The position numbers were made by a program, and so were the translations under genes. Positions 12,770 through 26,497 of a stretch of DNA of 64,000 nt are shown piece after piece. The stretch lies in the NCBI GenBank assembly GCA_963816975.1, contig CAWFMD010000006.1, positions 1,374,465 through 1,438,464 of the forward strand, given 5' to 3'. This DNA is from an uncultured Solirubrobacterales bacterium. GTDB lineage: Bacteria > Actinomycetota > Thermoleophilia > Solirubrobacterales > JBBDJG01. The number at the start of each line of letters is the position of its first letter. The first letter of the stretch is position 1. The notes under the pieces are model-generated. The model searched no databases, was not told the DNA's origin, and saw nothing but the letters and a program-made list of their open reading frames with translations.

Positions 12770-13537
12770 GTGGCCGTTTCTCCCTCTCGCAGGGCCAGCA
12801 CGAGAGGCTCTGTTGCTGGTATGACCGCAGGGACAGCCGCCGGGCACGCCACGGCGCGAAAGCTCACACGGCGCGTCTCAGGTGCCGCGCCGCAGACCGC
12901 CCGGCGCAAGCAGGGTGCCTATCAGCCTGACGACGAGTACCTCGTGGCGCTCGCCAAACAGGGCGCTGCGCACGCGACAGACAGGCTCGTCCGCCGGTAC
13001 CACGGGTTCGTGCGCCTGAAGGCCTCGTCCTACTTCCTGATCGGGGGCGACTCCGACGACCTGATTCAGGAGGGCCTGGTCGGCCTGTACAAGTCGATCC
13101 GCGACTACCGCCCCGAGCGCGAGTCGAGCTTCCGCAACTTTGCGGAGCTGTGCATCACCCGCCAGATCATCACCGCAGTCAAGACGGCAACGCGCAACAA
13201 GCACACGCCGCTCAACTCCTACGTCTCGTTCAGCCAGACGCCGGCCGCGGGCGGGGAGGAGGGCGAGCCGACGATGGCGGACGTGCTCCCGGGCTCGACC
13301 GTCCACGATCCGGTGAACCAGGTGATCTCCGCGGAGGAGATCCGGAGCCTCGTGGGCTGCATCACCAGCGTGCTCAGCGAGCTGGAGAGCCATGTGCTCT
13401 CGCTGTACCTGGACGGCCGCTCCTACGAGGAGGTGGCGGAGCGGCTGGAGTGCGACACCAAGACTGTCGACAACGCGCTCCAGCGCGTGAAGCGCAAGGT
13501 CGGGATGCACCTCGACTCGCGGGCGGTGCCGCTCTAG
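12770..13537 (+). CDS. sigH: RNA polymerase sigma factor, Bacillus SigH (Spo0H)-type
   Basis: Long near-identical blocks to the SigH signature as I recall it: SYFLIGGDSDDLIQEGLVGLYKSIRDY, SFRNFAELCITRQIITAVKTATRNKHTPLNSYVS, LSLYLDGRSYEEV, VDNALQRVKRK. GAGGAGG lies 6 nt before GTG 12770. Confidence 0.9.
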   Translation: MAVSPSRRASTRGSVAGMTAGTAAGHATARKLTRRVSGAAPQTARRKQGAYQPDDEYLVALAKQGAAHATDRLVRRYHGFVRLKASSYFLIGGDSDDLIQEGLVGLYKSIRDYRPERESSFRNFAELCITRQIITAVKTATRNKHTPLNSYVSFSQTPAAGGEEGEPTMADVLPGSTVHDPVNQVISAEEIRSLVGCITSVLSELESHVLSLYLDGRSYEEVAERLECDTKTVDNALQRVKRKVGMHLDSRAVPL

Positions 13538-13547
13538 GCCGGGGCGA

Positions 13548-13829
13548 CTAGTTCTCAGCGCGCCTGGCGTAAACCGGCGCCGGGCGCGTGACATGGGTGC
13601 CGCCGTCGGCCTGCGGGCACGGAGCCGTCTTGCATCCCGCTCCGCCGCCGACCGGGCCGCGGCGCGGCCAGCGCGGCAGAGGCGGGAGCTTGCGGCGCGG
13701 CCCGCGATCCTCGCCCGTCGCCTCCTCCGGAAAGGGTTCCTGCTTGATCGCCCACCAGACGAGCCACAGGGCCGCGATCATCGGGATCTTCAGGATCACG
13801 ACCATGTAGAAGATGGTCCAGCCTTCCAA
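13548..13829 (-). CDS. Small membrane protein, unknown function
   Basis: N-terminal hydrophobic helix (IFYMVVILKIPMIAALWLVWWAI) followed by a Pro/Arg/Gly-rich tail. No family recognised. Confidence 0.45.
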   Translation of the reverse strand: MEGWTIFYMVVILKIPMIAALWLVWWAIKQEPFPEEATGEDRGPRRKLPPLPRWPRRGPVGGGAGCKTAPCPQADGGTHVTRPAPVYARRAEN

Positions 13830-13901: not shown

Positions 13902-14909
13902 TCAGCGGCCGAACGTTTCGACGATCGCCTCGTGATAGGTGCGGATGCGGTCGGGGTCGGTCGCCACCACGGGTGCGCCGAGCAGCAGGCGGTCAGCGCT
14001 GCGCGCACGCGTCTCGAGCGCGGCGCGGCATTCGTCGGGGGTACCGGCGACGGCCATCTCGTCGAGCATCTCGTCGGTTACGAGCGCCGTCATCGCGGCC
14101 AGGTCGAAGCTCTTCCACAGATCCCTGATCCGGGCGGCGACGTCCGTGAACCCGTGCAGGTCCAGGATGCGGTCGTACGTGCGCACGGTCGCGTGGAACG
14201 CGATCTGGCGCTTCGCGTCTGCCCGCGCCTGGTCGCGGTCACCCGAGATCGCGAGCAGGACCCAATCGGCGACGGCGACGTCCGCGGGCGAACGGCGCGC
14301 GCGCGCGGCGCCCGCGGCGATCGCCGGGCGCATCACGTCTTGGATGTAGCGCACCGTGGCCATCGGGTGCGCGACGACCCCGTCCGCGATCGCGCCCGCC
14401 ATTCGCGTCATCCCCTCGTTGACCGCCGCGACATAGACGGGGACCCGCGGGCGGACCTGGCCGGCGCGGCCGTAGGGCCGCACGTTCAGGTTGATCAGCT
14501 CTCCCTCATACCGGACGCTGCCGGCCGCGGCTGCGTCCCATACGGCCCGGACCGCCTCGATCGTCTCGCGCAGCCGCGGGGCCGGCTGCTCGGCCGGAGC
14601 CCCCAGCCAGTCGGTGCGCATGCGCCGCGTGCCGGTTCCCAGTCCGAGCAGGAAGCGGCCGCCGGACATCTCGTCGAGATCGAGCGCGGTCACGGCGGTC
14701 AGCAGCGGCGACCGGCCGAACGCCCAAGCGATCGCGGTACCCAGCTCGATCCGCTCGGTCGCGACCGCCGCCGCCGCCAGCGCCAGCGCGCCCGAGTGGT
14801 TGTGGAACTCCGGCGCCCATGCGGAGTCGAAGCCGGCCTCCTCGGCCCGGCACGCGATCGCGACGTTCTCGCGCTGGGTGGGCAGCTCGAGCAGCAGGCC
14901 GAGGCGCAT
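13902..14909 (-). CDS. Luciferase-like monooxygenase (LLM) class oxidoreductase, probably F420-dependent
   Basis: AEEAGFDSAWAPEFH, GRFLLGLGTG and the overall LLM TIM-barrel pattern. Confidence 0.85.
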   Translation of the reverse strand: MRLGLLLELPTQRENVAIACRAEEAGFDSAWAPEFHNHSGALALAAAAVATERIELGTAIAWAFGRSPLLTAVTALDLDEMSGGRFLLGLGTGTRRMRTDWLGAPAEQPAPRLRETIEAVRAVWDAAAAGSVRYEGELINLNVRPYGRAGQVRPRVPVYVAAVNEGMTRMAGAIADGVVAHPMATVRYIQDVMRPAIAAGAARARRSPADVAVADWVLLAISGDRDQARADAKRQIAFHATVRTYDRILDLHGFTDVAARIRDLWKSFDLAAMTALVTDEMLDEMAVAGTPDECRAALETRARSADRLLLGAPVVATDPDRIRTYHEAIVETFGR

Positions 14910-15028
14910 CCCTGAGTTGTATCCGGCTGGCGCCGCAAGGAGGTGCCGGAGGCGTATGAACGGGTCGCCGCCGGGGACCGGCGGAGCGGCCGCGCTGACA
15001 AGGGCGACTGATACCCTCGCGCCCCCGA

Positions 15029-15580
15029 ATGACCGCCTATTACGTCCTCGGAATCGCCATGGTCCTGCTGGCGGTCGTGCTTTCCGCGATCGGCCTCACG
15101 CGGGAGGGCTTCCCGTCCAGCCGGGCGGGCGCGCGGGGGATCATGTTCGGGACCGCTGTCCTCGTGCTGACCGGGGCGGTCGTGCTGCTCCTCACGACGC
15201 ACAAGGAGCACCCGCGCGAGGAGGCGGCGGAAAAGGCGAAGCTGGCCGCCGAGCGCCGCGCGGAAGTGCCCGCCGGGGACGAGGCCCAGGGAGCAGGCGC
15301 CGAAACGACGGTGCGCGCGATCGAGAAGGAGTTCTCGATCGACCTCCAGGGGGGGAACACCCTGAAGCCCGGCAGCTATCGCTTCCGGGTCGCCAACGCG
15401 GGGAAGATCGAGCACGATCTCGCGATCGAGGGCGACGGCGTAGAGGAGAAGACCGCGCTGATCGGCCCGGGTGAAGAGGCCGCGCTGGAGGCGGATCTGA
15501 AGCCCGCGCAGTACCGCTTCTACTGCACCGTTCCGGGTCACGCGCAGTCGGGCATGGACATCAAAGTGGCGGTCCGATGA
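15029..15580 (+). CDS. Membrane-anchored cupredoxin (type-1 copper protein)
   Basis: N-terminal TM helices. C-terminal plastocyanin/azurin-like ligand set: H in EHDLAIEG, then C, H and M in FYCTVPGHAQSGM. Confidence 0.8.
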   Translation: MTAYYVLGIAMVLLAVVLSAIGLTREGFPSSRAGARGIMFGTAVLVLTGAVVLLLTTHKEHPREEAAEKAKLAAERRAEVPAGDEAQGAGAETTVRAIEKEFSIDLQGGNTLKPGSYRFRVANAGKIEHDLAIEGDGVEEKTALIGPGEEAALEADLKPAQYRFYCTVPGHAQSGMDIKVAVR

Positions 15581-15635
15581 GGGCCCGGACACCGCTCTTG
15601 GTCAGGTTCGCGGCGTAGTATCGTCCGCCCCCGGG

Positions 15636-16439
15636 ATGAGGCACCTTCGCAACCCGTACGTCCAGGTCGGCCTCTGGACCTCCGCGATCACGCTCATCGT
15701 GGGAGTGATCGTTTGGCAGGTTCCGTGGGAGCCCGAGCAGGCCTCCACCCAGGCCGGCCCGATCGACACCCTCTACGACGTGCTGGCGATCATCTCGGCG
15801 TTCGTGTTCGCGCTCGTGGTCAGCATCCTGATCGTCGCGGTCGTTCACTTCCGCAAGCGCGCGCCGGACGATCTGCGCGATGGTGAGCCCCTGCACGGCA
15901 ACACTCGCCTCGAGGTGGTGTGGACCACGATCCCGGCGATCCTGATGGTCGGCGCCGCGGTCTACAGCGGCCTGGTGCTGGCGGACATCGAGGAGACCAA
16001 GGCCAATCAGCGCACGATCGAGGTCACCGCGGAGCAGTTCGCCTGGACCTTCGAGTACACGGACGGCGAGCAGTTCCGGTCGGGTGAGCTGCACCTCGTG
16101 AAGGACGTCCCGTACTTCTTCAGGCTGACCGCGAAGGACGTGCTCCACTCATTCTGGGTCCCGCAGTTCCGGATGAAGAAGGACGCGGTTCCCGGCCTGA
16201 CGACGGACGTGCGCGTGACTCCCAGCCGGCTGGGCCGCTACACGCTCGCGTGCACGGAGCTGTGCGGATTGGGGCACTCCACGATGCGGGCCACGGTGAT
16301 CGTCGAGGACCAGGCCGCGTTCGATCGCTGGGCCCAGCGTCAGCGCAGCGGCGCCGGCCCCCAGCCCGGTGGGGTGGTCTCCCAGCAGGGCGGCCAGGCC
16401 GCCGGCGCCGAGTCACAGCAGCAGCAGGTCGCGCCGTGA
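15636..16439 (+). CDS. ctaC: Cytochrome c oxidase subunit II
   Basis: Two N-terminal TM helices, VLHSFWVP, and CuA site CTELCGLGHSTM. Confidence 0.9.
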   Translation: MRHLRNPYVQVGLWTSAITLIVGVIVWQVPWEPEQASTQAGPIDTLYDVLAIISAFVFALVVSILIVAVVHFRKRAPDDLRDGEPLHGNTRLEVVWTTIPAILMVGAAVYSGLVLADIEETKANQRTIEVTAEQFAWTFEYTDGEQFRSGELHLVKDVPYFFRLTAKDVLHSFWVPQFRMKKDAVPGLTTDVRVTPSRLGRYTLACTELCGLGHSTMRATVIVEDQAAFDRWAQRQRSGAGPQPGGVVSQQGGQAAGAESQQQQVAP

Positions 16440-16484
16440 TGCCCCGCGGGCCGCGCAACGGGTGCGATCGGAGGCGGGCCTAGA

Positions 16485-18455
16485 ATGGCCGGGATGGCGG
16501 TCGCCCAGCGCGAGATGAGTTTCCTGCGCCGCATGATGCAGCCGGGCTGGATCCGCGCCGCCTGGATGACGGTGGCCGGTGCCGCGTTCGCCTTCGGGCT
16601 GGTGGTCGGCATCCGGGCGCTGTACGGCACATACGTGCTCGAGGAGGACCCGCTCGTCACGGTCATCCTGATCGTCGCGCCGCTCGCGTTCCTGGTGGGG
16701 ATCGGAGGCTTCGATTACTGGGGCAGGTACATCGTGGGCGCGCCGACCAAGCCCGACGACCACTCGGATCACGGCGCCCGCAGCTGGAAGGACTACTTCA
16801 AGGTCAATACCGACCACAAGGTGATCGGTGTCCAGTACGTGGTCACGGCCCTGTTCTTCATGCTCGTCGGCGGCGCGCTGGCGGAGATGATCCGCGCGGA
16901 GCTTGCGCAGCCGGGGCAGCAGATCGTCGATCCGAACACCTACAACGGCCTGTTCTCGGTGCACGCCGCGCTGATGATCTTCCTGGTCATCATCCCGATC
17001 TTCGCGGGCCTCGCGAACTACGTGCTGCCGCTCATGATCGGCGCGCCCGACATGGCTTTCCCGCGCCTGAACGCGCTCAGCTACTGGCTGCTGCCCGTGG
17101 CCGGAGTGATGATGACCGCCAGCTTCCTCGTGCCGGACGGCGGTGCCTTCAACACCGGCTGGACTGCCTACGCACCGTTATCGGACAACGCGCCGCTGGG
17201 CCAGCAGTTCTTCACGATCGGCGTGCAGTTCGCGGGCACGTCCTCGATCATGACAGCGCTCAACTTCATCGTCACGATCATCACGATGCGCGCGCCCGGC
17301 ATGACGTTCTGGCGCATGCCGCTGCTGGTCTGGGCGAACTTCACCACGTCGCTGCTGGTCGTGATCGCGACACCGTTCGTCGCCGGCTCGCAGTTCCTGA
17401 TCCTGCTCGATCGCACGCTACAGGCGAACTTCTTCGACGCATCGCAGGGCGGGGACGTGATCTCCTACCAGCACATCTTCTGGTTCTACTCCCACCCGGC
17501 CGTCTACATCATGATGCTGCCCGGATTCGGGATCGTCTCGGAGGTGATCTCCACCAAGGCGCGCAAGCCGATCTTCGGCTATCGCCTGATGGCGCTGTCG
17601 CTGATGGCGATCCTGGTGCTGGGCTTCACCGTCTGGGCCCACCACATGTTCGTGTCGGGCATGTGGAGCTGGCTGCGCGTACCGATGATGATCACCACGA
17701 TGCTGATCGCGGTGCCGACCGGGATCAAGATCTTCTCGTGGCTCGCGACGCTGTGGAAAGGCGTGGTCGAGCTGTCCACGCCGATGCTGTTCGCGCTCGG
17801 CTTCATCGCGATGTTCACGCTCGGAGGCATCAGCGGGATCATGCTCGCCGCCATCCCGGTGGACATCCACACCTCGGACACGTACTTCGTGGTCGCGCAC
17901 CTCCACTACGTGCTGTTCGGCGGCAGCATCTTCACGATCTTTGCCGGCATCTACTACTGGTATCCGAAGATGACCGGGCGGATGTACGACGAGCGGCTCG
18001 GCAAGCTCCACTTCTGGATGACGTTCGTCGCCTTCAACGTCACGTTCGGGCCGATGCACTGGGTCGGGCTCGAGGGCATGCCGCGGCGCGTCGCGGACTA
18101 TGCCGACAAGTTCGCTGCATGGAACCTGGTCTCGTCGATCGGCGCCTTCTTCCTCGGGCTCGCGATGCTGGTGTTCGTCTACAACTTCGTCGCGAGCTGG
18201 GTCGGCGGGCCGCGCGCGCCCGGCAACCCGTGGCGGGCGCGCACGCTCGAGTGGCAGGTGTCCTCGCCGCCGCCGATCTTCAACTTCGACGAGATTCCCC
18301 AGGTGGTCGGCGGGCCCTACGAGTACGGCGTCCCCGGCTCGGTGCACGCGGTCCTGGCGGGCGGCGACCGCCAGGAGGTCGCGGTCGGGGCCGACGGCGC
18401 CGGGAACGGGCGGGCGGCGTCGCACGGCAACGGCAACGGTGCGCATCGGGAGTGA
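16485..18455 (+). CDS. ctaD: Cytochrome c oxidase subunit I (with about 105-aa N-terminal extension)
   Basis: Heme-copper oxidase subunit I motifs: NTDHKVIG, MAFPRLN, HPAVYI, WAHHMF, HLHYVLFGG. Confidence 0.95.
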   Translation: MAGMAVAQREMSFLRRMMQPGWIRAAWMTVAGAAFAFGLVVGIRALYGTYVLEEDPLVTVILIVAPLAFLVGIGGFDYWGRYIVGAPTKPDDHSDHGARSWKDYFKVNTDHKVIGVQYVVTALFFMLVGGALAEMIRAELAQPGQQIVDPNTYNGLFSVHAALMIFLVIIPIFAGLANYVLPLMIGAPDMAFPRLNALSYWLLPVAGVMMTASFLVPDGGAFNTGWTAYAPLSDNAPLGQQFFTIGVQFAGTSSIMTALNFIVTIITMRAPGMTFWRMPLLVWANFTTSLLVVIATPFVAGSQFLILLDRTLQANFFDASQGGDVISYQHIFWFYSHPAVYIMMLPGFGIVSEVISTKARKPIFGYRLMALSLMAILVLGFTVWAHHMFVSGMWSWLRVPMMITTMLIAVPTGIKIFSWLATLWKGVVELSTPMLFALGFIAMFTLGGISGIMLAAIPVDIHTSDTYFVVAHLHYVLFGGSIFTIFAGIYYWYPKMTGRMYDERLGKLHFWMTFVAFNVTFGPMHWVGLEGMPRRVADYADKFAAWNLVSSIGAFFLGLAMLVFVYNFVASWVGGPRAPGNPWRARTLEWQVSSPPPIFNFDEIPQVVGGPYEYGVPGSVHAVLAGGDRQEVAVGADGAGNGRAASHGNGNGAHRE

Positions 18456-18456
18456 C

Positions 18457-19323
18457 GTGGAGGCCGCGCAGTCGACACCGTCGCAGCAACCGGCACACGT
18501 GCTCGTCGTGGCGAACGAGACCGTCGGCGGGCAGAAGCTGATCGACGCGATCGAGCGCCGCGCCGCGCGCGGGCCGATCCGCTGCACCGTGGTGTGCCCG
18601 CAGAACACGCCGAGGCGCGGCTTCGTGGTCTATGACGACACAGCGCGCTCCGCCGCCCGTGTGCGCCTGGAGTTGATCCTGCAGCGCCTGCACGAGATGG
18701 GCATCGAGGCGCGCGGTGAGGTGATGGACCCCGAGCCCTATCTGGCGATCCAGGATGCGCTGCGCGAGTGGGGCGGGGACGAGATCATCATCTCCACCTA
18801 CGTCTATCCGCGCTCGGGACTGCTGCGCCGCGATCTGGTCGAGCGCATCGAGAAGTGGTCGGGCCTGCCCGTCGAGCACGTCGTGGTGGACCTGCGCGAG
18901 GAGCCCGTGCGCAACGTGCTGGTGCTCGCCAGCCAGACAGTCGGGGGGCGCAGCCTGATCGAGACGCTCGAGCGACGGTCGACATCTTCGCCGCACCGCT
19001 TCACGGTGATCCTGCCCCCCACGGGGCCCGACGACGACACCGCCCAGCAACGCCTCGACCACACTTTGGACGCGCTGCGCCGCGCCGGCCTCCGGGTGAC
19101 CGGATACGTGGCCGAGCCGGACCCGTTCAACAGCGTCATGAACGCGCTCGGGCACCACCCGGCTGACGAGATCGTGGTGTCGACGCTCCCGACCGGTGAG
19201 TCGCGCTGGCTGCGCGGTGACCTGATCGACAGGCTGCGCAAGGCGACGGCCCGCCCGGTCGAGCACGTGATTTCCGACCCGGCCGAGCAGGGATCGCAGC
19301 CCGCCGAGGCGGTGGCCGGCTGA
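18457..19323 (+). CDS. Uncharacterised protein made of two tandem copies of a ~125-aa alpha/beta domain, embedded in the cta operon
   Basis: GTG 18457 lies 1 nt after the ctaD stop, and the TGA overlaps the ctaE ATG. Internal duplication: HVLVVANETVGGQKLIDAIERR.. and NVLVLASQTVGGRSLIETLERR... The upstream part of track ORF 18100..19323 overlaps ctaD and is rejected. Confidence 0.75.
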   Translation: MEAAQSTPSQQPAHVLVVANETVGGQKLIDAIERRAARGPIRCTVVCPQNTPRRGFVVYDDTARSAARVRLELILQRLHEMGIEARGEVMDPEPYLAIQDALREWGGDEIIISTYVYPRSGLLRRDLVERIEKWSGLPVEHVVVDLREEPVRNVLVLASQTVGGRSLIETLERRSTSSPHRFTVILPPTGPDDDTAQQRLDHTLDALRRAGLRVTGYVAEPDPFNSVMNALGHHPADEIVVSTLPTGESRWLRGDLIDRLRKATARPVEHVISDPAEQGSQPAEAVAG

Positions 19324-19937
19324 TGGAGTCAGCCTCCGTCGCCGCAGGCGCGCACGCCCACGAGCATCACGGCCCGCCCGAGGCTCACAAGAGCTCGCGC
19401 ATCGACTCGCAGCTGCTGGGCGTCCTGCTCTTCATCATCTCCGAGGCGATGCTGTTCGGGTCGTTCTTCACGGCCTACTTCTTCGTTCGCGTCGTACAGA
19501 ACGAGCCGTGGCCGCCGGACCCGTTCGAGTACCCGGTCCTGGTGGCGAGCATGAACACGGCGATCCTGGTGTCATCGAGCTTCACGGTGCACTACGCGCT
19601 GCACTCGATCAAACGTGGCAACCGTCTCGGCATGCAGGTCGGGCTCGTGACGACGTTCCTGCTCGGGGCGATGTTCCTGCTCACGCAGGTGAACGAGTAC
19701 GTCAAGGCCGGTTTCGCGATCTCCGACGGCGCGTTCGCGTCCGTCTTCTACGGCCTCACCGGGCTGCACGGTGCGCACGTCTTCGTGGGGCTCACGCTGC
19801 TGGCGATCATGACCGTGCGCGCGTTTCGCGGCCACTTCAGTCCCGAAGCCCACATGGGCGTCGAGTGTGCGGGCATCTACTGGCACTTCGTGGACGTGAT
19901 GTGGATCGTCGTGTGGAGCACTGTCTACCTTTTGTAG
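19323..19937 (+). CDS. ctaE: Cytochrome c oxidase subunit III
   Basis: LGVLLFIISEAMLFGSFFTAYF, GLHGAHVFVG and YWHFVDVMWIV motifs. Confidence 0.9.
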   Translation: MESASVAAGAHAHEHHGPPEAHKSSRIDSQLLGVLLFIISEAMLFGSFFTAYFFVRVVQNEPWPPDPFEYPVLVASMNTAILVSSSFTVHYALHSIKRGNRLGMQVGLVTTFLLGAMFLLTQVNEYVKAGFAISDGAFASVFYGLTGLHGAHVFVGLTLLAIMTVRAFRGHFSPEAHMGVECAGIYWHFVDVMWIVVWSTVYLL

Positions 19938-20054
19938 CGAGTCCCATCCGAATCAGGGGGTGACGCGATCATCAATCCGCTCCGATCCGAGGAAGACGCT
20001 TTTCGGTTCACGCTGATCGTCGCGGCCCTGCTCGCACCGATCGCGCTGGTCGCG

Positions 20055-20639
20055 GTGATCTGGAGCACCGGCGCGGCGCTGGCCGTGGCCGGCGGTCTTG
20101 CGATCGGCGTCGTCGTCGGCCTGTTCATGCTGAAGCGGGACGAGCCGCGCGAGAAGATGCTCCTCGGCCGCCGCCTCGAGGACCGCCCTGACGGCCGCTA
20201 TCGGATCCTGGTGGTCGCCAACGAGACGCTGTCCGGCAGCGCCCTGCGCGCCGAGATCTCGCGCCGCGGGCACGGCGGGGAGGCCCACCTGAAGGTCGTG
20301 TGCCCGGCCCTCAACAGCAAGATCAAGCACTGGACCAACGAGGAGGACGCGGCCCGCGCGGCGGCCCGCGCGCGCCTCGAGACCTTGCTGGCGGGACTGC
20401 GCGGGGAGGGATTCGACGCCGACGGGGACATCGGCGACGACGACCCCGTGCAGGCCATGGAGGACGAGCTGCGGCGGTTCCCCGCCGACGAGGTGATCAT
20501 CTCCACCCACCCGCCGGGCCGTTCGAACTGGCTCGAGCGTGACGTCGTGGAACGGGCGCGGCAGACCTTCGCGATCGACGTCACCCACGTGGTGGTCGAC
20601 CTCGACCGCGAGGGCGTGGGTCCGGCGCCAGCTACTTGA
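20055..20639 (+). CDS. Membrane-anchored paralogue (third copy) of the cta-embedded domain
   Basis: Hydrophobic N-terminus, then RILVVANETLSGSALRAEISRR..DEVIISTHPPGRSNWLERDVVERA..VTHVVVD. The frame is open back to 19938, but no canonical start lies upstream of GTG 20055. Confidence 0.7.
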   Translation: MIWSTGAALAVAGGLAIGVVVGLFMLKRDEPREKMLLGRRLEDRPDGRYRILVVANETLSGSALRAEISRRGHGGEAHLKVVCPALNSKIKHWTNEEDAARAAARARLETLLAGLRGEGFDADGDIGDDDPVQAMEDELRRFPADEVIISTHPPGRSNWLERDVVERARQTFAIDVTHVVVDLDREGVGPAPAT

Positions 20640-21318
20640 CGGTCAGGTTGCCCTTCATGCCGGCCTGCTCGTGGCCCGGCACCGAGCAGTAGAACTCGTA
20701 CGTCCCGGCCTTCAGGTTCGCGCTCACCTCGGAGACCCCGCCGCCCTGCACGACGGGACCCTCGCCGTCGCCCTTGATCGCGATGTTGTGCGGCACGGAG
20801 GCGTCGTTCTTGGAGCGCAGCGTGATCTTGCCCGGCTTGGCGGTGGCGTCCTTGGCCTGATAGGCGAGCTGGCCGCTGGGGTCCGCCGGGATCGAGACCA
20901 CGTTGTTGGCGTCCGCCGCGGCGGTGCCGGAGGGACCGCCGGCGCCGCCTTCGGCCGCCTTGCCGATCGCACTCGCCACGTAGGCGCCCACGTCGCGCGC
21001 GTCGTCGCCCTTGTACAGGTCGGCCGGCATCTGGTTGCCCTGCGGCAGGTCGATCTGGTTCTCGACCACGGCCGCGATCGTGCTGCGCCCGAGGCCGTCC
21101 GCGATCGACTGCTTGAAGGCCAGGTCGAGGTTCGGCCCCTGCACGCCCTTTGTGCCGGCGTTCTGGAGGATGTGACAGGCGCCGCACTTCTGCGTGAAGA
21201 GCTCCTTGCCGCGGGCGAGGTCAGGCGGGTCCTGGCCGCCGCAGCCGGGGGCGGCCAGCGCGGTCGCGCCGGCGATCACGGCCGCGACCAGGGGGCTTCG
21301 GAGGGGCTTCGACAGCAT
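20632..21318 (-). CDS. Lipoprotein fusing a c-type cytochrome domain to a cupredoxin domain
   Basis: Lipobox LAAPGC, heme-c motif CGACH, distal Met candidate (GNQMPAD), then type-1 Cu ligands (PHNIAIKG, FYCSVPGHEQAGM). ATG 21318 (MLSKPLRS) preferred; the track start is TTG 21360. Confidence 0.8.
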   Translation of the reverse strand: MLSKPLRSPLVAAVIAGATALAAPGCGGQDPPDLARGKELFTQKCGACHILQNAGTKGVQGPNLDLAFKQSIADGLGRSTIAAVVENQIDLPQGNQMPADLYKGDDARDVGAYVASAIGKAAEGGAGGPSGTAAADANNVVSIPADPSGQLAYQAKDATAKPGKITLRSKNDASVPHNIAIKGDGEGPVVQGGGVSEVSANLKAGTYEFYCSVPGHEQAGMKGNLTVK

Positions 21319-21396
21319 CGGCGGTCGGGCATTATCCGCATTTCGGCGGTCGTGTGCCAAACGGGGGGCGCGTACGGCGCCCGATCGGCTACGCGC

Positions 21397-22815
21397 TCAG
21401 CAGCCCGACTGGGGGTCCGACGCGTTCGTCGGGGCACTCGGGCATTCCTCCCAGGTGCTGCGGGTGAAGCCCGACGCCGACCCGGACCCACCGCTGCCGG
21501 GGGGGTTGCTGCTGATGCCCGAGACGTCCCCCTCGACGAAGTTGAGGCCGTTGGTGGCGGTCACGCTCTGGGCGTAGATCGCTCCGTACCAGTTCGTCTT
21601 GTTCGTGAATTTGACGGGCGCATTCGGGGCGAAGAGTGCGGCCCCGAAGCCGGACTGGTTGCTGACGTTGATCTGGGCCGCACCGTAGTAGATGATCTGC
21701 AGCGCGGTCGGGTCGGCGGGCGGGCTGAGCGCCGGGTTGTAGTTCAAGTAGGAGGTATTGGTGATCGTGAACTTGCTGTCGCTGGAGCAGCTCGAGCCCG
21801 GGCGCGAGGATGAGTCGATGAACAACTGGACCTTTGCTCCGTTCAACAACACGATGCTTGTCTTGTTGCTGAACTTCACTTCGCAGAAGTTGAAGATCCA
21901 GTAGCCGCCCGAGCCCGCGCGCGGGTTCTGGCCGGTCAGCGTGAGGGTGGCGTCCCCGCTGTCCTCGAGGCTGCGCGTGCCGCTCGCCGGGTTGTAGTCG
22001 AAGCCGGCGGCGCTGCCGAAGACCGCCGCGTTGTCGTTGTTCGCGGCCAGCGCGGTGTTCGGATTGCCGATCAGCCCGTCGAAGCTGGGCGTCGGCCAGG
22101 GCGTCGGGTTGGGCGGCGCGACGTTGGGGGTGCCGCTGCACGAGTTCGAGATCGTCCCGCTCGGCCCCGGCGCGAAATCGATGCTCGAGGCCGAGCCCGA
22201 GGTCTTGCAGGACTTGAGCTTGAACTCGCCGTTCGTCGCGACCCGGCCCACGATGTCTCCGAAGCCGTTCTGGTTGATGTCGATCGAGCCCAGCCCCGAG
22301 AGTCCCAATCTCGGAAACAGCGGGGTGCTCGCTGCCGCGCTCGCGACCAGGGCCTCGAGGCGGCGCACCACGTTGCCGACCGTCCCGATCGAGGTGATGC
22401 ACCGCTGGATCGGCGTCGCGCCTCCGCTCTGCGCGGTCGTTCCGCCGCAGGCGGTCCCGGCGTCGAGCACGGGGGTCACGTAGTAGGAGTAGGTCGCGCC
22501 GTTGCCCGCGCCTGCGGTGGCCGGCGGGCACTCGCCGGGCGCCGCACCCGACGTGCCCGTCGCGACCGGCTGGTCCGTCAGGCACATGCCGGCTGCGGGG
22601 TCGACCTTGTTGAGGCGGTACCGCGCGATCTGCATGCCGGCCTCCGCCGCGCCGAGCGCGCGCTTCGCGCTGGTGTCCCGGCTCGCGGTGTTGTTGGCCT
22701 GGATCGACGCGCTGAGCACGACCGCGACCAGCAGGAGAACGACCGCCAGCACGGATACCGCGAGCGCCACCGCGACGCCGCTCTCGTCCCGGATCAGGCG
22801 GCGCGACACGCTCAC
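21397..22815 (-). CDS. PilX-N-like large pseudopilin/pilus-associated protein
   Basis: GTG 22815 forms a GTGA overlap with the upstream stop. RDESGVAVALAVSVLAVVLLLVAVVLSASIQ...AKRALGAAEAGMQIA matches the PilX N-terminal pattern. Gly/Thr/Ser/Asn-rich beta-type remainder. Confidence 0.7.
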   Translation of the reverse strand: MSVSRRLIRDESGVAVALAVSVLAVVLLLVAVVLSASIQANNTASRDTSAKRALGAAEAGMQIARYRLNKVDPAAGMCLTDQPVATGTSGAAPGECPPATAGAGNGATYSYYVTPVLDAGTACGGTTAQSGGATPIQRCITSIGTVGNVVRRLEALVASAAASTPLFPRLGLSGLGSIDINQNGFGDIVGRVATNGEFKLKSCKTSGSASSIDFAPGPSGTISNSCSGTPNVAPPNPTPWPTPSFDGLIGNPNTALAANNDNAAVFGSAAGFDYNPASGTRSLEDSGDATLTLTGQNPRAGSGGYWIFNFCEVKFSNKTSIVLLNGAKVQLFIDSSSRPGSSCSSDSKFTITNTSYLNYNPALSPPADPTALQIIYYGAAQINVSNQSGFGAALFAPNAPVKFTNKTNWYGAIYAQSVTATNGLNFVEGDVSGISSNPPGSGGSGSASGFTRSTWEECPSAPTNASDPQSGC

Positions 22816-23477
22816 GAGCCCTTCCTCGCGTTCGGGTCCGTTGCCACGGCGGAGAACAGCAGCGGCTTGCGGGCGCTGCCCGTGACCGTCACCGCCACCG
22901 TGATTCGCTTGTAGTCGGAGGTGATCGCCTGGTCCGCGGAGCTGGAGCACGATGTGCACGGGTCGTCGATCGAGGTGATGAACCTGTAGAGGCTCCCGGT
23001 CAGTCCCCCGGCGCTCCACGAGATCGGGCCGGGGGCCGTGGTCCCGCTCGCGTTGATCACCAGCGGGGCGACCGTCGCCGATGAGGCGGGGGCACTCTGG
23101 TCCCACTGGTAGCACGAGCTTGCGGAGGCGGGACAGCCCGAGGCGCCACTCGCGTAGACGTAGTAGCGGGGATCGCCCGGGTTCGTGCTCGCGGCGGGAG
23201 CCGCGTTGGTCGCGATCGATGCGTAGCCTCCCGCGAGCAGCCGTTCGAGGTCCTGCTGCGCGACGTGCGCGGCGGCCTGCTTGTTCTCCGAGCTGACGGT
23301 CAGCCTGCGGGAGCTGTCGAGCGCCATCGCCGCTCCCAGGAGGCCGACGGACAGCATCATGATCGCCACCAGCAGCTCGATCATCGTGAAGCCGCGCTCG
23401 TGGAGCAGCCGGCGGCGGGCCCGTCCAGCCAGGGGCGGCCCCGCGGTGGCGAGCGCTTTCAGCGCGTGCGACGTCAC
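22812..23477 (-). CDS. Type IV pilin-like protein with prepilin cleavage/methylation motif
   Basis: ERG/FTMIELLVAIMMLSVGLLG (G-1, E+5, hydrophobic helix). Track coordinates used. Confidence 0.8.
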   Translation of the reverse strand: MTSHALKALATAGPPLAGRARRRLLHERGFTMIELLVAIMMLSVGLLGAAMALDSSRRLTVSSENKQAAAHVAQQDLERLLAGGYASIATNAAPAASTNPGDPRYYVYASGASGCPASASSCYQWDQSAPASSATVAPLVINASGTTAPGPISWSAGGLTGSLYRFITSIDDPCTSCSSSADQAITSDYKRITVAVTVTGSARKPLLFSAVATDPNARKGS

Positions 23478-24088
23478 TGGGTTCCGAGATTCCTGGGGTA
23501 GAAGCCATCGTCCAGGGTGATGTTTCGGCTGTAGCCGGTCGAGCCTCCAGCGTTGGCGGGCACGACGACGGTGGCCTGGACGAACGTCGGATTAATCGCG
23601 TCCGGCGTGAAGCTGAAGACGCCCGGGTTGGACGGCGCCGCCGCGGTCCCGTTCAGGACCCGGTCCACGATCACAGGCGCGCTTCCGGTACTCGGCGCGG
23701 CCGTGAGCGTCGTGCTGGCAGCCCGCACGCACTGGCGATAGCTGACCCCCGAAGGCTGCACGTCGCACTTGTAGACGACGCGCGTCGGCACTCCCGCGAT
23801 CGCGATCTTGACGTCCATCGTGCTCGCGCTCGCCGCATAGATGGTGCTGGCCTGGCGCAGCTCGCGGGTCATGCGATGGAGGCCGACCTGGACCGCGCGG
23901 GCGGCTTGGCCGGCTGCGATCTCGCGCCTGGCGACCTTGTCCGTGACGTTGTAGAAGCCGAACAGCGACAGCATGACCACGACGAACCCCGACATCACTG
24001 CCAGCAGCTCGATCAGCGAGAACCCGGCCTCGCCGCCGAGCAGGCGCGCAGCTCCACGTGGAGCCTTCCGTGGCATCCAGTTGGACAT
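23474..24088 (-). CDS. Type IV pilin-like protein with prepilin cleavage/methylation motif
   Basis: GEAG/FSLIELLAVMSGFVVVMLSLFG. ATG 24088 (MSNWMPRKAPRG) chosen, because the track ORF start 24205 would run into the tRNA gene. Confidence 0.8.
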   Translation of the reverse strand: MSNWMPRKAPRGAARLLGGEAGFSLIELLAVMSGFVVVMLSLFGFYNVTDKVARREIAAGQAARAVQVGLHRMTRELRQASTIYAASASTMDVKIAIAGVPTRVVYKCDVQPSGVSYRQCVRAASTTLTAAPSTGSAPVIVDRVLNGTAAAPSNPGVFSFTPDAINPTFVQATVVVPANAGGSTGYSRNITLDDGFYPRNLGTQ

Positions 24089-24169
24089 TCGACCTATGTG
24101 TGATCGGCTACTTCGGCCCAGGGGTTGAGCGGAAACGCGGTTTTCCGTCGCCTCCCTCCTGACGCGCAG

Positions 24170-24242
24170 AGCCGGAGAGGGGACTCGAACCCCTGGCCCC
24201 GTCATTACAAGTGACGTGCTCTACCAACTGAGCTACTCCGGC
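24170..24242 (-). tRNA. tRNA-Thr (anticodon UGU)
   Basis: Minus strand reads GCCGGAGTAGCTCAGTTGGTAGAGCACGTCACTTGTAATGACGGGGCCAGGGGTTCGAGTCCCCTCTCCGGCT. Acceptor stem GCCGGAG/CTCCGGC, D arm GCTC/GAGC, anticodon stem CGTCA/TGACG with loop CTTGTAA, T arm AGGGG-TTCGAGT-CCCCT. 73 nt, CCA not encoded. Confidence 0.9.
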
Positions 24243-24817: not shown

Positions 24818-26497
24818 ATGCGGGGTATTCACCCTGTCGAGATGGACCTCGAGCGCGCCCACCAGATCGCCCGCGAACGCGGCCCCGTGATGCCCGTCTA
24901 TTGGGTGGTCCGCGCGATCCTCCAGCCGTTCTTCCACCTGTACTTCCGACTCGGACGCATCGGCCGGGAGCACGTCCCCGCGCAGGGCCCCGTGCTGCTC
25001 GCGTCCAACCACCGCAGCTTCGCGGACCCATTCCTGATCGGCTGCTGCCTCGGGCGTCCGCTGCGCTTCGTCGCGAAGCTCGAGTTGTTCGACAAGCGCT
25101 GGAAGGCCCGGCTCCTGCTGGCCCTCGGCGCCTTCCCCATCCGCCGCGGGGAATCCGACGAGGCCGCGATGGAGACGGCCCGGGTGATCCTCGAGCAGGG
25201 CGGTGCGGTCGGCATCTTCCCGGAGGGCACCCGCGTGCGGCCCGGTCCGCTGGGCGAGCCGAAGCGCGGCGTCGGCCGGCTGGCGCTCGAGACCGGCGCT
25301 CCCATCGTGCCCGTCGCGATCGTCGGCACGGAGGACATCCGCAAGGGCTGGCGCATCCGCCCGCGCCGCGTGACCGTCCGCTGCGGCCGCGCCCTGCGCT
25401 TCCCGCGCCCACTCGATCGCGAGCCCCGTCAGGCGGCCGCGCAGGAGATCTCCAACCGCGTGTGGTCGTGCATCTCGTTGCAGTGGGAATGGCTCGGGGG
25501 CCTGCAGCCGATCCGCCAGGCTGTCGTGGTCGGCGCCGGCAGCTGGGGCACTGCGGTGGCCACGCTGCTGGCGCGCTCAGGCACCACGGTGCAGCTCGGC
25601 TGCCGCACCGCGGAGCAGGCTCGCGACCTCGGCCTGAACCGCACGAATGCCGCGTATCTGCCGGGAGTCCAGCTGCCCGACAACGTGCGGGTCGTGATGG
25701 TCGACGATCTCCGCTTCGACGACGTGAGCCTGGTCTGCATGGCGGTTCCCTCCCGCTCGCTCGACGACGCGCTCGGCGCCATCCGGGCGCGCATCCCCGA
25801 CGGCCTCGGCGTGCTGGTGCTCTCGAAGGGCCTGCTTGCGCCGCACGGCACGCTGCCGAGCCAGCTGGTCGCCGCGCGCACCGGCGAACGGCCGACCGCA
25901 TGCCTCGGCGGGCCGGCTCATGCCGGCGAAGCGGTTCGCCGCGGCGCGCACGTGACCGTCGCATCTGCCGACCCGACGTTCGCGGCGCTGATCGCGAGCA
26001 GCCTGCGGCGCGCGGGACTTGCGTGCGACACGAGCCGCGACCTCGTCGGCATCGAGCTCGCAGGTGCCGCGAAGAACGCGGCCGCCCTGGCCGCGGGTGC
26101 GGCGATGGCGGATGGGCCGAACGCGGCCGGGGCGGCCGCGGGACGCGTCTACGAGGAGTGCCACGCGCTCGCCCACAAGCGCGGCGCGGCGGCCGCGAGC
26201 TTCACCGGTACGGCCGGCATCGGCGACCTGGTGGCCACCGTGCTCGCGGCACACAGCCGCAACCGGCGCGCCGGCGAGCTGCTTGCGCAGGGAGTCGAGC
26301 CCGGGGAGATCCCGCAGATCCTGGGCCAGGTTCCGGAGTCCCTGCATGCGGTACCCGTGCTCGCGCGGGCGATGAGCGAGGCGGGCGTCCGATCCACGGC
26401 GACCGAGCAGCTGGCGGCGCTCGCGGAGGGACGCATCGGCCCGGACCAGTGGGTCGAATTGGCGCGCCGCTCGCGCGCAGGGTCACGAGCCGCCTGA
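24818..26497 (+). CDS. plsC/gpsA: Fusion protein: 1-acyl-sn-glycerol-3-phosphate acyltransferase (PlsC) domain + NAD(P)H-dependent glycerol-3-phosphate dehydrogenase (GpsA) domain
   Basis: N-half: LLASNHRSFADPF (HX4D) and GIFPEGTR. C-half: VVVGAGSWGTAVATLLA Rossmann motif, NAAYLPG, GAAKNAAALAAG. One continuous frame with no stop between the halves. The start could be 24818 or 24842. Confidence 0.85.
   Translation: MRGIHPVEMDLERAHQIARERGPVMPVYWVVRAILQPFFHLYFRLGRIGREHVPAQGPVLLASNHRSFADPFLIGCCLGRPLRFVAKLELFDKRWKARLLLALGAFPIRRGESDEAAMETARVILEQGGAVGIFPEGTRVRPGPLGEPKRGVGRLALETGAPIVPVAIVGTEDIRKGWRIRPRRVTVRCGRALRFPRPLDREPRQAAAQEISNRVWSCISLQWEWLGGLQPIRQAVVVGAGSWGTAVATLLARSGTTVQLGCRTAEQARDLGLNRTNAAYLPGVQLPDNVRVVMVDDLRFDDVSLVCMAVPSRSLDDALGAIRARIPDGLGVLVLSKGLLAPHGTLPSQLVAARTGERPTACLGGPAHAGEAVRRGAHVTVASADPTFAALIASSLRRAGLACDTSRDLVGIELAGAAKNAAALAAGAAMADGPNAAGAAAGRVYEECHALAHKRGAAAASFTGTAGIGDLVATVLAAHSRNRRAGELLAQGVEPGEIPQILGQVPESLHAVPVLARAMSEAGVRSTATEQLAALAEGRIGPDQWVELARRSRAGSRAA

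Follow-up and report, generated by a model that had tools for sequence, protein, structure and literature searches.

Paralogous cupredoxins, one of them fused to a cytochrome c, flank an A-type haem-copper oxidase gene cluster in an uncultured Solirubrobacterales bacterium

The DNA analyzed here (hereafter, the window) is a stretch of 64,000 nucleotides from contig CAWFMD010000006.1 of an uncultured Solirubrobacterales bacterium (class Thermoleophilia; assembly GCA_963816975.1), with a G+C content of ~70%. It carries a haem-copper oxidase gene cluster (ctaC-ctaD-unkA-ctaE-unkB) that is led by a gene for a membrane-anchored cupredoxin (cup1) and faced at its far end by a convergent gene encoding a cytochrome c joined to a second cupredoxin (hereafter, the fusion). 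The 3' end of the fusion gene shares 8 bp with unkB, and the G+C content at third codon positions of cup1 (0.89) is in the usual range for genes of the window. The motifs quoted for the two proteins by an initial annotation, made from the sequence alone, were all present at the positions it gave: EHDLAIEG and FYCTVPGHAQSGM in Cup1, and CGACH, PHNIAIKG and FYCSVPGHEQAGM in the fusion.

Table 1 Features of the oxidase locus (positions in the window; A1 to A4 are alignments of homologues).
Feature	Position	Strand	Remarks
cup1	15029-15580	+	183 aa; leads the cluster; 55 bp upstream of ctaC
Cup1 membrane hairpin	15035-15208	+	Kyte-Doolittle peaks and AlphaFold2 helices
Cup1 type-1 Cu ligands (predicted)	H129 15413-15415; C166 15524-15526; H171 15539-15541; M176 15554-15556	+	invariant in A2 and A4
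ctaC (oxidase subunit II)	15636-16439	+	267 aa; Pfam COX2_TM and COX2
ctaD (subunit I, A-type haem-copper oxidase)	16485-18455	+	656 aa; Pfam COX1
unkA	18457-19323	+	288 aa; GTG start; between ctaD and ctaE
ctaE (subunit III)	19323-19937	+	204 aa; Pfam COX3, E 9.2e-46
unkB	20055-20639	+	194 aa; after ctaE
cytochrome c-cupredoxin fusion, probable lipoprotein	20632-21318	-	228 aa; Pfam PF00034 and PF00127
fusion type-1 Cu ligands (predicted)	H177 20788-20790; C211 20686-20688; H216 20671-20673; M221 20656-20658	-	conserved in A1 and A3
fusion Met97, probable distal haem ligand, motif QMPA	21028-21030	-	invariant in A3, ≥90% in A1
fusion haem-binding motif C45-G-A-C48-H49 (predicted)	21172-21186	-	C45, C48 and H49 invariant in A1 and A3
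fusion lipobox Cys26	21241-21243	-	invariant in A1 and A3
promoter-like TTGGCA-18-GATAAT	21331-21360	-	just upstream of the fusion ATG

The Pfam model Copper-bind (PF00127) matched Cup1 with an E-value of 2.8e-7 (31.3 bits; gathering score 21.2). The AlphaFold2 (AF2) model of the protein, with a mean predicted local distance difference test score (pLDDT) of 74, showed a beta-sandwich at residues 93-182, for which the means of 10-residue blocks were 73-92 and mostly 86-92. The Foldseek neighbours of Cup1 were cupredoxins (the N-terminal domains of EfeO and HdNiR, azurin and auracyanin), and the models of Cup1 and the fusion cupredoxin reached a probability of 1.00 to auracyanin, plastocyanin, azurin and the EfeO N-terminal domain. 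Among 62 aligned homologues, H129, C166, H171 and M176 were invariant. A total of 351 homologues were found, and the loop spacing C-x4-H-x4-M was kept in all of the best 120, 19 of which have a tandem pair of cupredoxin domains. By model score, fold and ligand set Cup1 is thus a cupredoxin, which would bind copper.

The description of Cup1 as a membrane-anchored protein with type-1 copper ligands was right as to the domain, the ligands and the presence of an anchor, but the anchor is a two-helix hairpin and not a single helix. Both of its hydrophobic segments exceed 2.1 on the Kyte-Doolittle scale (AF2 helices 3-24 and 32-60) and are joined by an Arg-rich loop, TREGFPSSRAGARG. The hairpin is followed in the model by an amphipathic helix (62-78) and a disordered acidic linker that leads to the beta-sandwich. 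The loop motif GLTRExFP and a juxtamembrane motif, EHP..EAA, were invariant across the same 62 sequences. The anchor is conserved as strongly as the copper site, so that the hairpin and juxtamembrane motif suggest a defined contact with another protein and more than simple tethering to the membrane. With no charge ahead of helix 1 and three Arg in the loop, Cup1 most likely has both termini outside and the loop inside, which would place the copper domain outside the membrane.

The fusion protein of the window is 100% identical to the database protein P0001. A domain search found both Cytochrom_C (PF00034; E 1.2e-7, 33.4 bits, cut-off 21.3) and Copper-bind (PF00127; E 1.9e-9, 38.3 bits, gathering score 21.2) on the one open reading frame (ORF), which confirmed the predicted fusion. 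Its parts are, in order, a signal-like segment, Cys26, CxxCH, Met97, a Gly/Ala-rich linker and the C-terminal cupredoxin. In alignment A1, C211, H216 and M221 were invariant and H177 was conserved in ≥90% of the sequences; in the deeper alignment A3, H177, C211 and H216 were invariant and M221 was conserved in ≥90%. CxxCH is present in all of the best 120 homologues and C-x4-H-x4-M in 118, where it always comes after the haem motif in the chain. The copper and haem ligands on which the initial annotation relied are hence invariant or nearly so in the homologues of both families. The N-terminal half is a class I cytochrome c by motif and model and is predicted to bind haem, and the C-terminal domain is, by model score, fold and ligands, a cupredoxin with a putative copper site. 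That this domain and Cup1 are paralogous was borne out by 38% identity over 73 aa (E 4e-15). As to the lipoprotein assignment, Cys26 is invariant and a PROSITE-like lipobox pattern is met by 112 of the 120 best homologues, but the window's own A-P-G-C, with Pro at -2, is atypical and fails it, and we regard the fusion as a probable lipoprotein.

In the AF2 model of the fusion, the 10-residue block means of the cupredoxin part were mostly 71-95, with one block of 59. Residues 34-116 form five helices with pLDDT mostly <65, as modelled without haem on a shallow alignment. The closest solved structure to the cupredoxin part was auracyanin 6kol (Foldseek E 1e-6, sequence E 4.9e-5, ~25% identity). 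The second haem domain of actinobacterial QcrC (7q21_C, E 6.6e-5; also 7e1v and 8hcr) was among the closest to the haem domain, which mitochondrial-type cytochromes c matched nearly as well. No solved structure uniting both domains was among the PDB sequence and Foldseek matches. The window cupredoxins also had weak matches to Pfam SoxE (19.4 and 20.2), below its gathering score of 21.

Window CtaC has a complete CuA motif, H-x34-CTELCGLGHSTM. Its Pfam matches are COX2_TM and COX2 only, and it contains no CxxCH, in agreement with the initial view that it carries the CuA site with no fused cytochrome c. CtaC scored 163.1 against TIGR02866 (CoxB; cut-off 147.7). CtaD matched Pfam COX1 over residues 114-556 (E 4.1e-160) and scored 701.1 against TIGR02891 (cut-off 670.75). 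The oxidase fell below the models for actinobacterial bcc-aa3 supercomplexes (NF050116, 606.3 vs 880; NF050117, 117.5 vs 250; NF050119, 136.2 vs 190), and on these NCBIfam scores it is classed as a generic A-type haem-copper enzyme, neither of the caa3 nor of the actinobacterial supercomplex type. CtaD has an N-terminal extension of ~110 aa (16485-16825, + strand) with hydrophobic segments at ~24-45 and ~58-75, ahead of the COX1 match at 114, which may be a fused small subunit.

A cytochrome c-cupredoxin fusion had been thought unusual. It is instead abundant in Thermoleophilia, with 1,863 homologues at E ≤ 1e-5. Of the 50%-identity representatives, 4,245 clusters matched the fusion at E ≤ 1e-3, and 57 did so at E ≤ 1e-30; full-length proteins (225-260 aa) are frequent among them. 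Both domains were present as precomputed Pfam matches in 119 of the 120 best homologues; P0023 shows cytochrome families only. Matches with an informative label, in species-representative genomes, were almost all from Thermoleophilia (Solirubrobacteraceae, Conexibacteraceae, Baekduia, Thermoleophilaceae and Gaiellaceae), and several records were labelled merely 'uncultured Actinomycetes bacterium' or 'bacterium'. The best fusion loci among these genomes were ~50% identical to the window protein. NCBI annotation names examples of both families 'plastocyanin/azurin family copper-binding protein', and one fusion homologue 'c-type cytochrome'. Our literature search for cytochrome c-cupredoxin fusions or Thermoleophilia oxidases found nothing relevant; the architecture is real, conserved and common, yet apparently unstudied.

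The fusion lies next to the oxidase genes in relatives as well, as the initial annotation had expected. We collected 48 loci with a full-length fusion, 43 of which were informative (≥2 kb of 3' flank). ctaE was convergent to the fusion within 3 kb in 38 of these 43 and within 4.7 kb in 40. The exceptions were L017 and two distant homologues (L043 and L044, ~34% identity), the latter two without cta neighbours. In distant loci the core ctaC-ctaD-unkA-ctaE still faces the fusion at 40-51% protein identity, and the adjacency spans Solirubrobacteraceae, Conexibacteraceae, Baekduia and Thermoleophilaceae, with variable genes on the other side of the fusion.

L039 (JBBRYO010000048.1), from a bin with the label Candidatus Limnocylindrales (Chloroflexota), likewise has the complete module of ctaC-ctaD-unkA-ctaE and fusion. 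The CtaD of L039 clusters with Thermoleophilia sequences, and either the module was acquired horizontally or the contig was misbinned or mislabelled. Further architectures contain the cytochrome c-cupredoxin module: in P0185 it ends a Ser/Thr protein kinase, in P0252 it follows a zinc-ribbon, and in P0232 it has two haem domains. In related proteins of 400-790 aa (P0122, P0124, P0140 and P0151) there are 4-6 cupredoxin repeats.

Cup1 has a narrower range. In metagenome contigs, a search with the Cup1 alignment found 44 loci that belong to the Cup1 family in the strict sense, and ctaC followed cup1 on the same strand, at a distance of 0-468 bp, in all 41 with sufficient downstream sequence. The same order was found in L001, L002, L003, L084, L085, L086 and the window, making 48 loci overall, and those with long flanks show the full cup1-ctaC-ctaD-unkA-ctaE-unkB facing the fusion. 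In the 22 metagenome loci where the ctaC frame reaches a stop, it is 243-270 codons long, counted from where the match starts, and never encodes CxxCH. The ctaC genes of the window, L001, L002, L084, L085 and L086 likewise have no CxxCH (27 loci plus the window in total).

Among the 23 loci without Cup1 that keep a ctaC match, CtaC carries a C-terminal extension of ~110 aa with CxxCH in 18, and none has a cupredoxin gene upstream of ctaC. The extension was identified as Pfam Cytochrom_C in both of the two caa3-type loci searched, and over 40 aa the haem domain of the fusion is 45% identical to the one in relatives with caa3 oxidases (E 6e-8). In the loci examined, Cup1 and the CtaC haem domain are mutually exclusive. 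The absence of a cytochrome c from CtaC is therefore true of the window but is a lineage trait, since most relatives have a caa3-type CtaC. The co-occurrence expected of both cupredoxin genes with the cta genes likewise holds in that Cup1 precedes ctaC wherever the sequence can be read and the fusion is convergent, but the fusion is class-wide and Cup1 is confined to one sub-lineage, which is monophyletic in a neighbour-joining tree of CtaD. With midpoint rooting, the Cup1 clade is sister to all others, a topology compatible with either loss or ancestral absence of the haem domain there.

Five loci (L025, L029, L030, L039 and L040) have neither Cup1 nor a CtaC haem domain, and the notion that Cup1 is needed whenever CtaC is without a haem domain was rejected on their account. 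They are scattered among the caa3 loci, which suggests repeated loss of the CtaC haem domain. In three of them a minus-strand ORF with a Cys/His/Met copper-site-like motif lies ~3.5 kb upstream of ctaC (L025:17697-18605, L030:17658-18500 and L040:17837-18493); it may be a second subunit II, and hence part of a second oxidase cluster nearby.

The cupredoxin-only matches L045-L083 and L131-L166 were not counted as Cup1 loci, being other cupredoxin families with no cta context. L131-L166 (e.g. L150:6677-7261, L161:6677-7273 and L135:1094-1699) encode sister hairpin-anchored cupredoxins ~50% identical to the copper domain of Cup1. In L150 and L161, the two loci whose upstream sequence is long enough, the sister gene comes after a pair resembling, by eye, an extracytoplasmic function sigma factor and a membrane anti-sigma-like protein, and in L135 only the anti-sigma-like gene is visible upstream, cut at the contig end. 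The more distant Cup1-like proteins of L045 and L082 are likewise outside a cta context.

The two remaining genes of the cluster have no Pfam or NCBIfam match. UnkA is a soluble protein built from a tandem duplicate of a ~140-aa TT0030-like (universal stress protein-like) domain, and UnkB has an N-terminal transmembrane helix and a single copy of the UnkA-type domain (44% identity to UnkA over 138 aa, E 1e-18). At least 6,909 homologues of UnkA were found, a lower bound from the 8,000 top candidates that were scored, and most are named 'hypothetical'. A profile of these homologues matched PDB 2iel (Thermus thermophilus TT0030, a structural-genomics 'hypothetical protein') with an E-value of 1.7e-8. 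One of 120 UnkA homologues has a precomputed match to PF00582 (universal stress protein), which UnkA and UnkB themselves do not match, and a few JGI records label homologues 'UspA family'. In almost every related Thermoleophilia locus examined, unkA lies between ctaD and ctaE; no UnkA match was found by tblastn in L025 or L028. As a separate gene, unkB occurs only in Cup1-bearing loci.

Several known systems resemble parts of this locus. In caa3 oxidases (Thermus, Bacillus and Rhodothermus) subunit II carries a C-terminal cytochrome c, a built-in one-electron entry beside CuA, as in most Thermoleophilia relatives, whereas in the window CtaC has no haem domain and the gene of a separate putative type-1 copper protein stands at the equivalent genomic position; presumably the protein is its functional counterpart too. 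AcoP, a transmembrane-anchored cupredoxin from an oxidase operon, remains with the oxidase during purification and takes electrons from cytochrome c4 (PMC5982212, PMC4059628). Its rus operon in Acidithiobacillus ferrooxidans (cyc2-cyc1-acoP-coxBACD-rus) is like the window locus in encoding an N-terminally anchored cupredoxin with aa3 oxidase genes, and a second cupredoxin and a c-type cytochrome at the same locus, which are here united in one polypeptide. Cup1 differs from AcoP in its anchor, a hairpin of two helices where AcoP has one, in its classic H-C-H-M set with the C-x4-H-x4-M spacing, and in its host, a neutrophilic soil actinobacterium. No AcoP chain was among the PDB sequence matches of Cup1 (E ≤ 0.1) or its top 50 Foldseek matches, and no homology with AcoP was thus detected: the resemblance is one of position and function only.

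The lipoprotein cytochromes c551 (CccB of B. subtilis, and that of Geobacillus) are small class I cytochromes, lipid-tethered outside the membrane, that donate to haem-copper oxidases (PMC3475470). They are single-domain proteins, whereas the fusion adds a C-terminal cupredoxin and would thus have two redox centres. Auracyanins of Chloroflexus and Roseiflexus are membrane-tethered respiratory or photosynthetic blue copper carriers. They share the C-x4-H-x4-M loop type with the fusion cupredoxin but have no haem domain, belong to another phylum and are ~25% identical to it. The three-domain copper nitrite reductases RpNiR and HdNiR carry, in one chain with type-1 copper, a tethered cytochrome c or an additional cupredoxin (PMC13324648, PMC6278305). 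Although the N-terminal cupredoxin of HdNiR was among the top structural matches of Cup1, these are enzymes with a catalytic T2 copper core, while the fusion consists of two carrier domains only. Archaeal halocyanin and sulfocyanin (SoxE) are membrane-bound blue copper proteins serving terminal oxidases instead of cytochrome c. They differ from the window proteins in being archaeal and without a haem c partner domain, and the SoxE Pfam matches noted above were sub-threshold.

We consider it fairly probable that the fusion is a tethered electron shuttle of Thermoleophilia A-type oxidases and that Cup1 is an additional, AcoP-like electron-entry subunit. The fusion would take up electrons from a menaquinol:cytochrome c reductase at the outer membrane face and hand them on to the oxidase, where the cytochrome c domain fused to CtaC would be the acceptor in most relatives. 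In the window lineage Cup1 would stand where that domain stands, its type-1 copper serving as the one-electron entry to the adjacent CuA as the caa3 haem c domain does. This reading agrees with three observations: Cup1 and the CtaC haem domain exclude each other; the hairpin is as conserved as the copper site; and donor and acceptor pairs are paralogous, with Cup1 like the fusion cupredoxin and the haem domain of the fusion like that of caa3 CtaC. The analysis establishes the domain architectures, the conserved ligands, the paralogy, the synteny and the fact that Cup1 and the haem domain exclude each other. What goes beyond these, including haem and copper binding, outward topology, lipidation, which proteins are partners, and in what order and direction electrons pass, we infer from sequence, which is compatible with either order of the two fusion centres (haem to copper or copper to haem). 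The initial proposal that the two proteins form a dedicated electron-delivery chain to the oxidase is still the best hypothesis on domains, ligands and synteny, but the pair is not a general unit.

Several observations weigh against this reading. The 64-kb window contains no qcr or ACIII reductase gene, which means that the upstream donor is not located there, and the position of the fusion on the opposite strand excludes co-transcription with the cta genes. The topology of Cup1 was read only from the three Arg of the loop, and Lys and Arg also follow helix 2. In addition to the atypical lipobox of the window protein, the haem domain and linker of the AF2 fusion model were of low confidence (mean pLDDT 63.9), and haem-to-copper geometry drawn from it was dropped. 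The five relatives with neither Cup1 nor a haem domain also have to be counted here, as do the sister cupredoxins of L131-L166, with a Thr-rich linker and an FPRFRP loop, which do not adjoin cta genes. Finally, sub-threshold NCBIfam matches of Cup1 to CopI (E 1.3e-4) and EfeO (E 1.8e-5), together with the EfeO and FtrB cupredoxin domains among its top Foldseek neighbours, give room for a role in metal handling.

Such a role would make Cup1 a copper-handling or protective accessory, whether a supplier or protector of CuA, a stabilizer of the AcoP type or a CopI-like copper-stress protein, and we regard it as unlikely. It is true that neighbours of ctaC often encode assembly factors and that five relatives manage with neither Cup1 nor a haem domain. 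AcoP, moreover, was first described as stabilizing oxidase activity (PMC5982212). However, the NCBIfam scores of Cup1 were all far under the cut-offs (e.g. 24 bits vs 270), its H-C-H-M type-1 set is complete and invariant with a C-x4-H-x4-M loop of the rusticyanin/auracyanin type, and it is strictly associated with a CtaC lacking the haem domain. In the aligned sequences, for which no motif scan was made, no His/Met-rich stretch (CopI), CxxxC (Sco) or Met/His motif of PCuAC was apparent.

For the fusion, the shuttle has to be weighed against a fixed subunit linking complex III to the oxidase within a supercomplex, like the two-domain QcrC of Actinomycetes. In the bcc-aa3 supercomplexes of Actinomycetes, electrons run through QcrC and not through a soluble cytochrome c, and two redox centres per chain would suit a wire. 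The match to the second haem domain of QcrC points the same way, with mitochondrial-type cytochromes c nearly equal. A fixed bridge nevertheless seems improbable to us: the probable lipid anchor and Gly/Pro-rich tail, and the ~30-residue Gly/Ala-rich linker modelled with low confidence, would suit a tethered mobile carrier, and the oxidase subunits score under the NCBIfam cut-offs of the actinobacterial supercomplex type. The lipoprotein cytochromes c of Firmicutes also serve as carriers (PMC3475470). Still less probable, in our estimate, is that the fusion is a general extracytoplasmic carrier, or a donor to another enzyme, and stands beside the cta genes only through inherited gene order. 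Its opposite strand and probable own promoter would agree with this, as would the occurrence of the same module in other architectures (e.g. in the Ser/Thr kinase), the two distant homologues without cta neighbours, and the synteny of the whole neighbourhood (sigma factor, luciferase-like genes and the acyltransferase-dehydrogenase gene described below) in close relatives. Against it, several families keep the adjacency even where protein identity is down to 40-51%, and the fusion's other neighbour changes among them; no NirK, NosZ or other likely acceptor gene was called beside the fusion in loci with gene tables; and a CxxCH/Rieske motif scan of all likely genes of the 64-kb window found none besides the fusion, which is thus the only c-type cytochrome gene there.

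Within the preferred reading of shuttle and entry subunit, a more specific picture is possible, and we put it forward tentatively. In such a 'cupredoxin-aa3' oxidase, where electrons would enter CuA from type-1 copper, a hairpin-anchored type-1 copper subunit with a gene of its own would have replaced the caa3 haem c domain in the window lineage, and the two-headed fusion would dock like with like, haem to haem in caa3 oxidases and copper to copper with Cup1.

The promoter-like site ahead of the fusion (Table 1) was the sole sigma-70-like match in 14700-21600, where 0.4 would be expected by chance; it is weakly consistent with the start codon at 21318 and with independent transcription of the fusion. 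A scan for terminators found fewer sites than chance alone would give and was set aside. Three pseudopilin-like genes (21397-24205, - strand) stand immediately upstream of the fusion, one with the prepilin N-methylation motif PF07963 and one with a sub-threshold match to DUF7305. L001 and L002 carry Tricorn/PD40 beta-propeller genes at this position, and the pseudopilin block is therefore a lineage-specific insertion beside the conserved respiratory module. Beyond it, 24818-26497 (+ strand) encodes a 559-aa PlsC-type acyltransferase fused to an NAD-dependent glycerol-3-phosphate dehydrogenase (GpsA), conserved in L001, L084 and L086. On the other side of the cluster, a sigma-70 family gene (12770-13537, + strand) is followed by a gene for a 93-aa protein (13548-13829, - strand) with an N-terminal hydrophobic segment and no Pfam match, a candidate anti-sigma partner. 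This pair is kept beside the cta cluster in L001 and L084-L086.

In soil, Thermoleophilia (Solirubrobacterales and their relatives) rank among the most abundant Actinomycetota; they are mostly known from metagenomes, and we know of no prior study of their respiratory chains. Our results indicate that they appear to use a caa3/aa3 oxidase with a dedicated haem-copper fusion carrier, and not the textbook dihaem QcrC wired to aa3. Membrane-tethered small redox proteins that serve haem-copper oxidases were already known; what would be added here is a lineage in which a type-1 copper subunit takes the place of the haem c entry domain. Two large families, whose named examples NCBI calls only 'plastocyanin/azurin family copper-binding protein', thereby gain a specific functional hypothesis. 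With a haem domain on CtaC in some lineages and a separate cupredoxin before ctaC in another, Thermoleophilia offer a natural experiment on the interchangeability of haem c and type-1 copper at the entry to CuA. If the replacement proposed for the 'cupredoxin-aa3' oxidase is true, nature would have swapped haem for copper at the point where electrons enter a bacterial A-type oxidase, in a way that can be traced by phylogeny.

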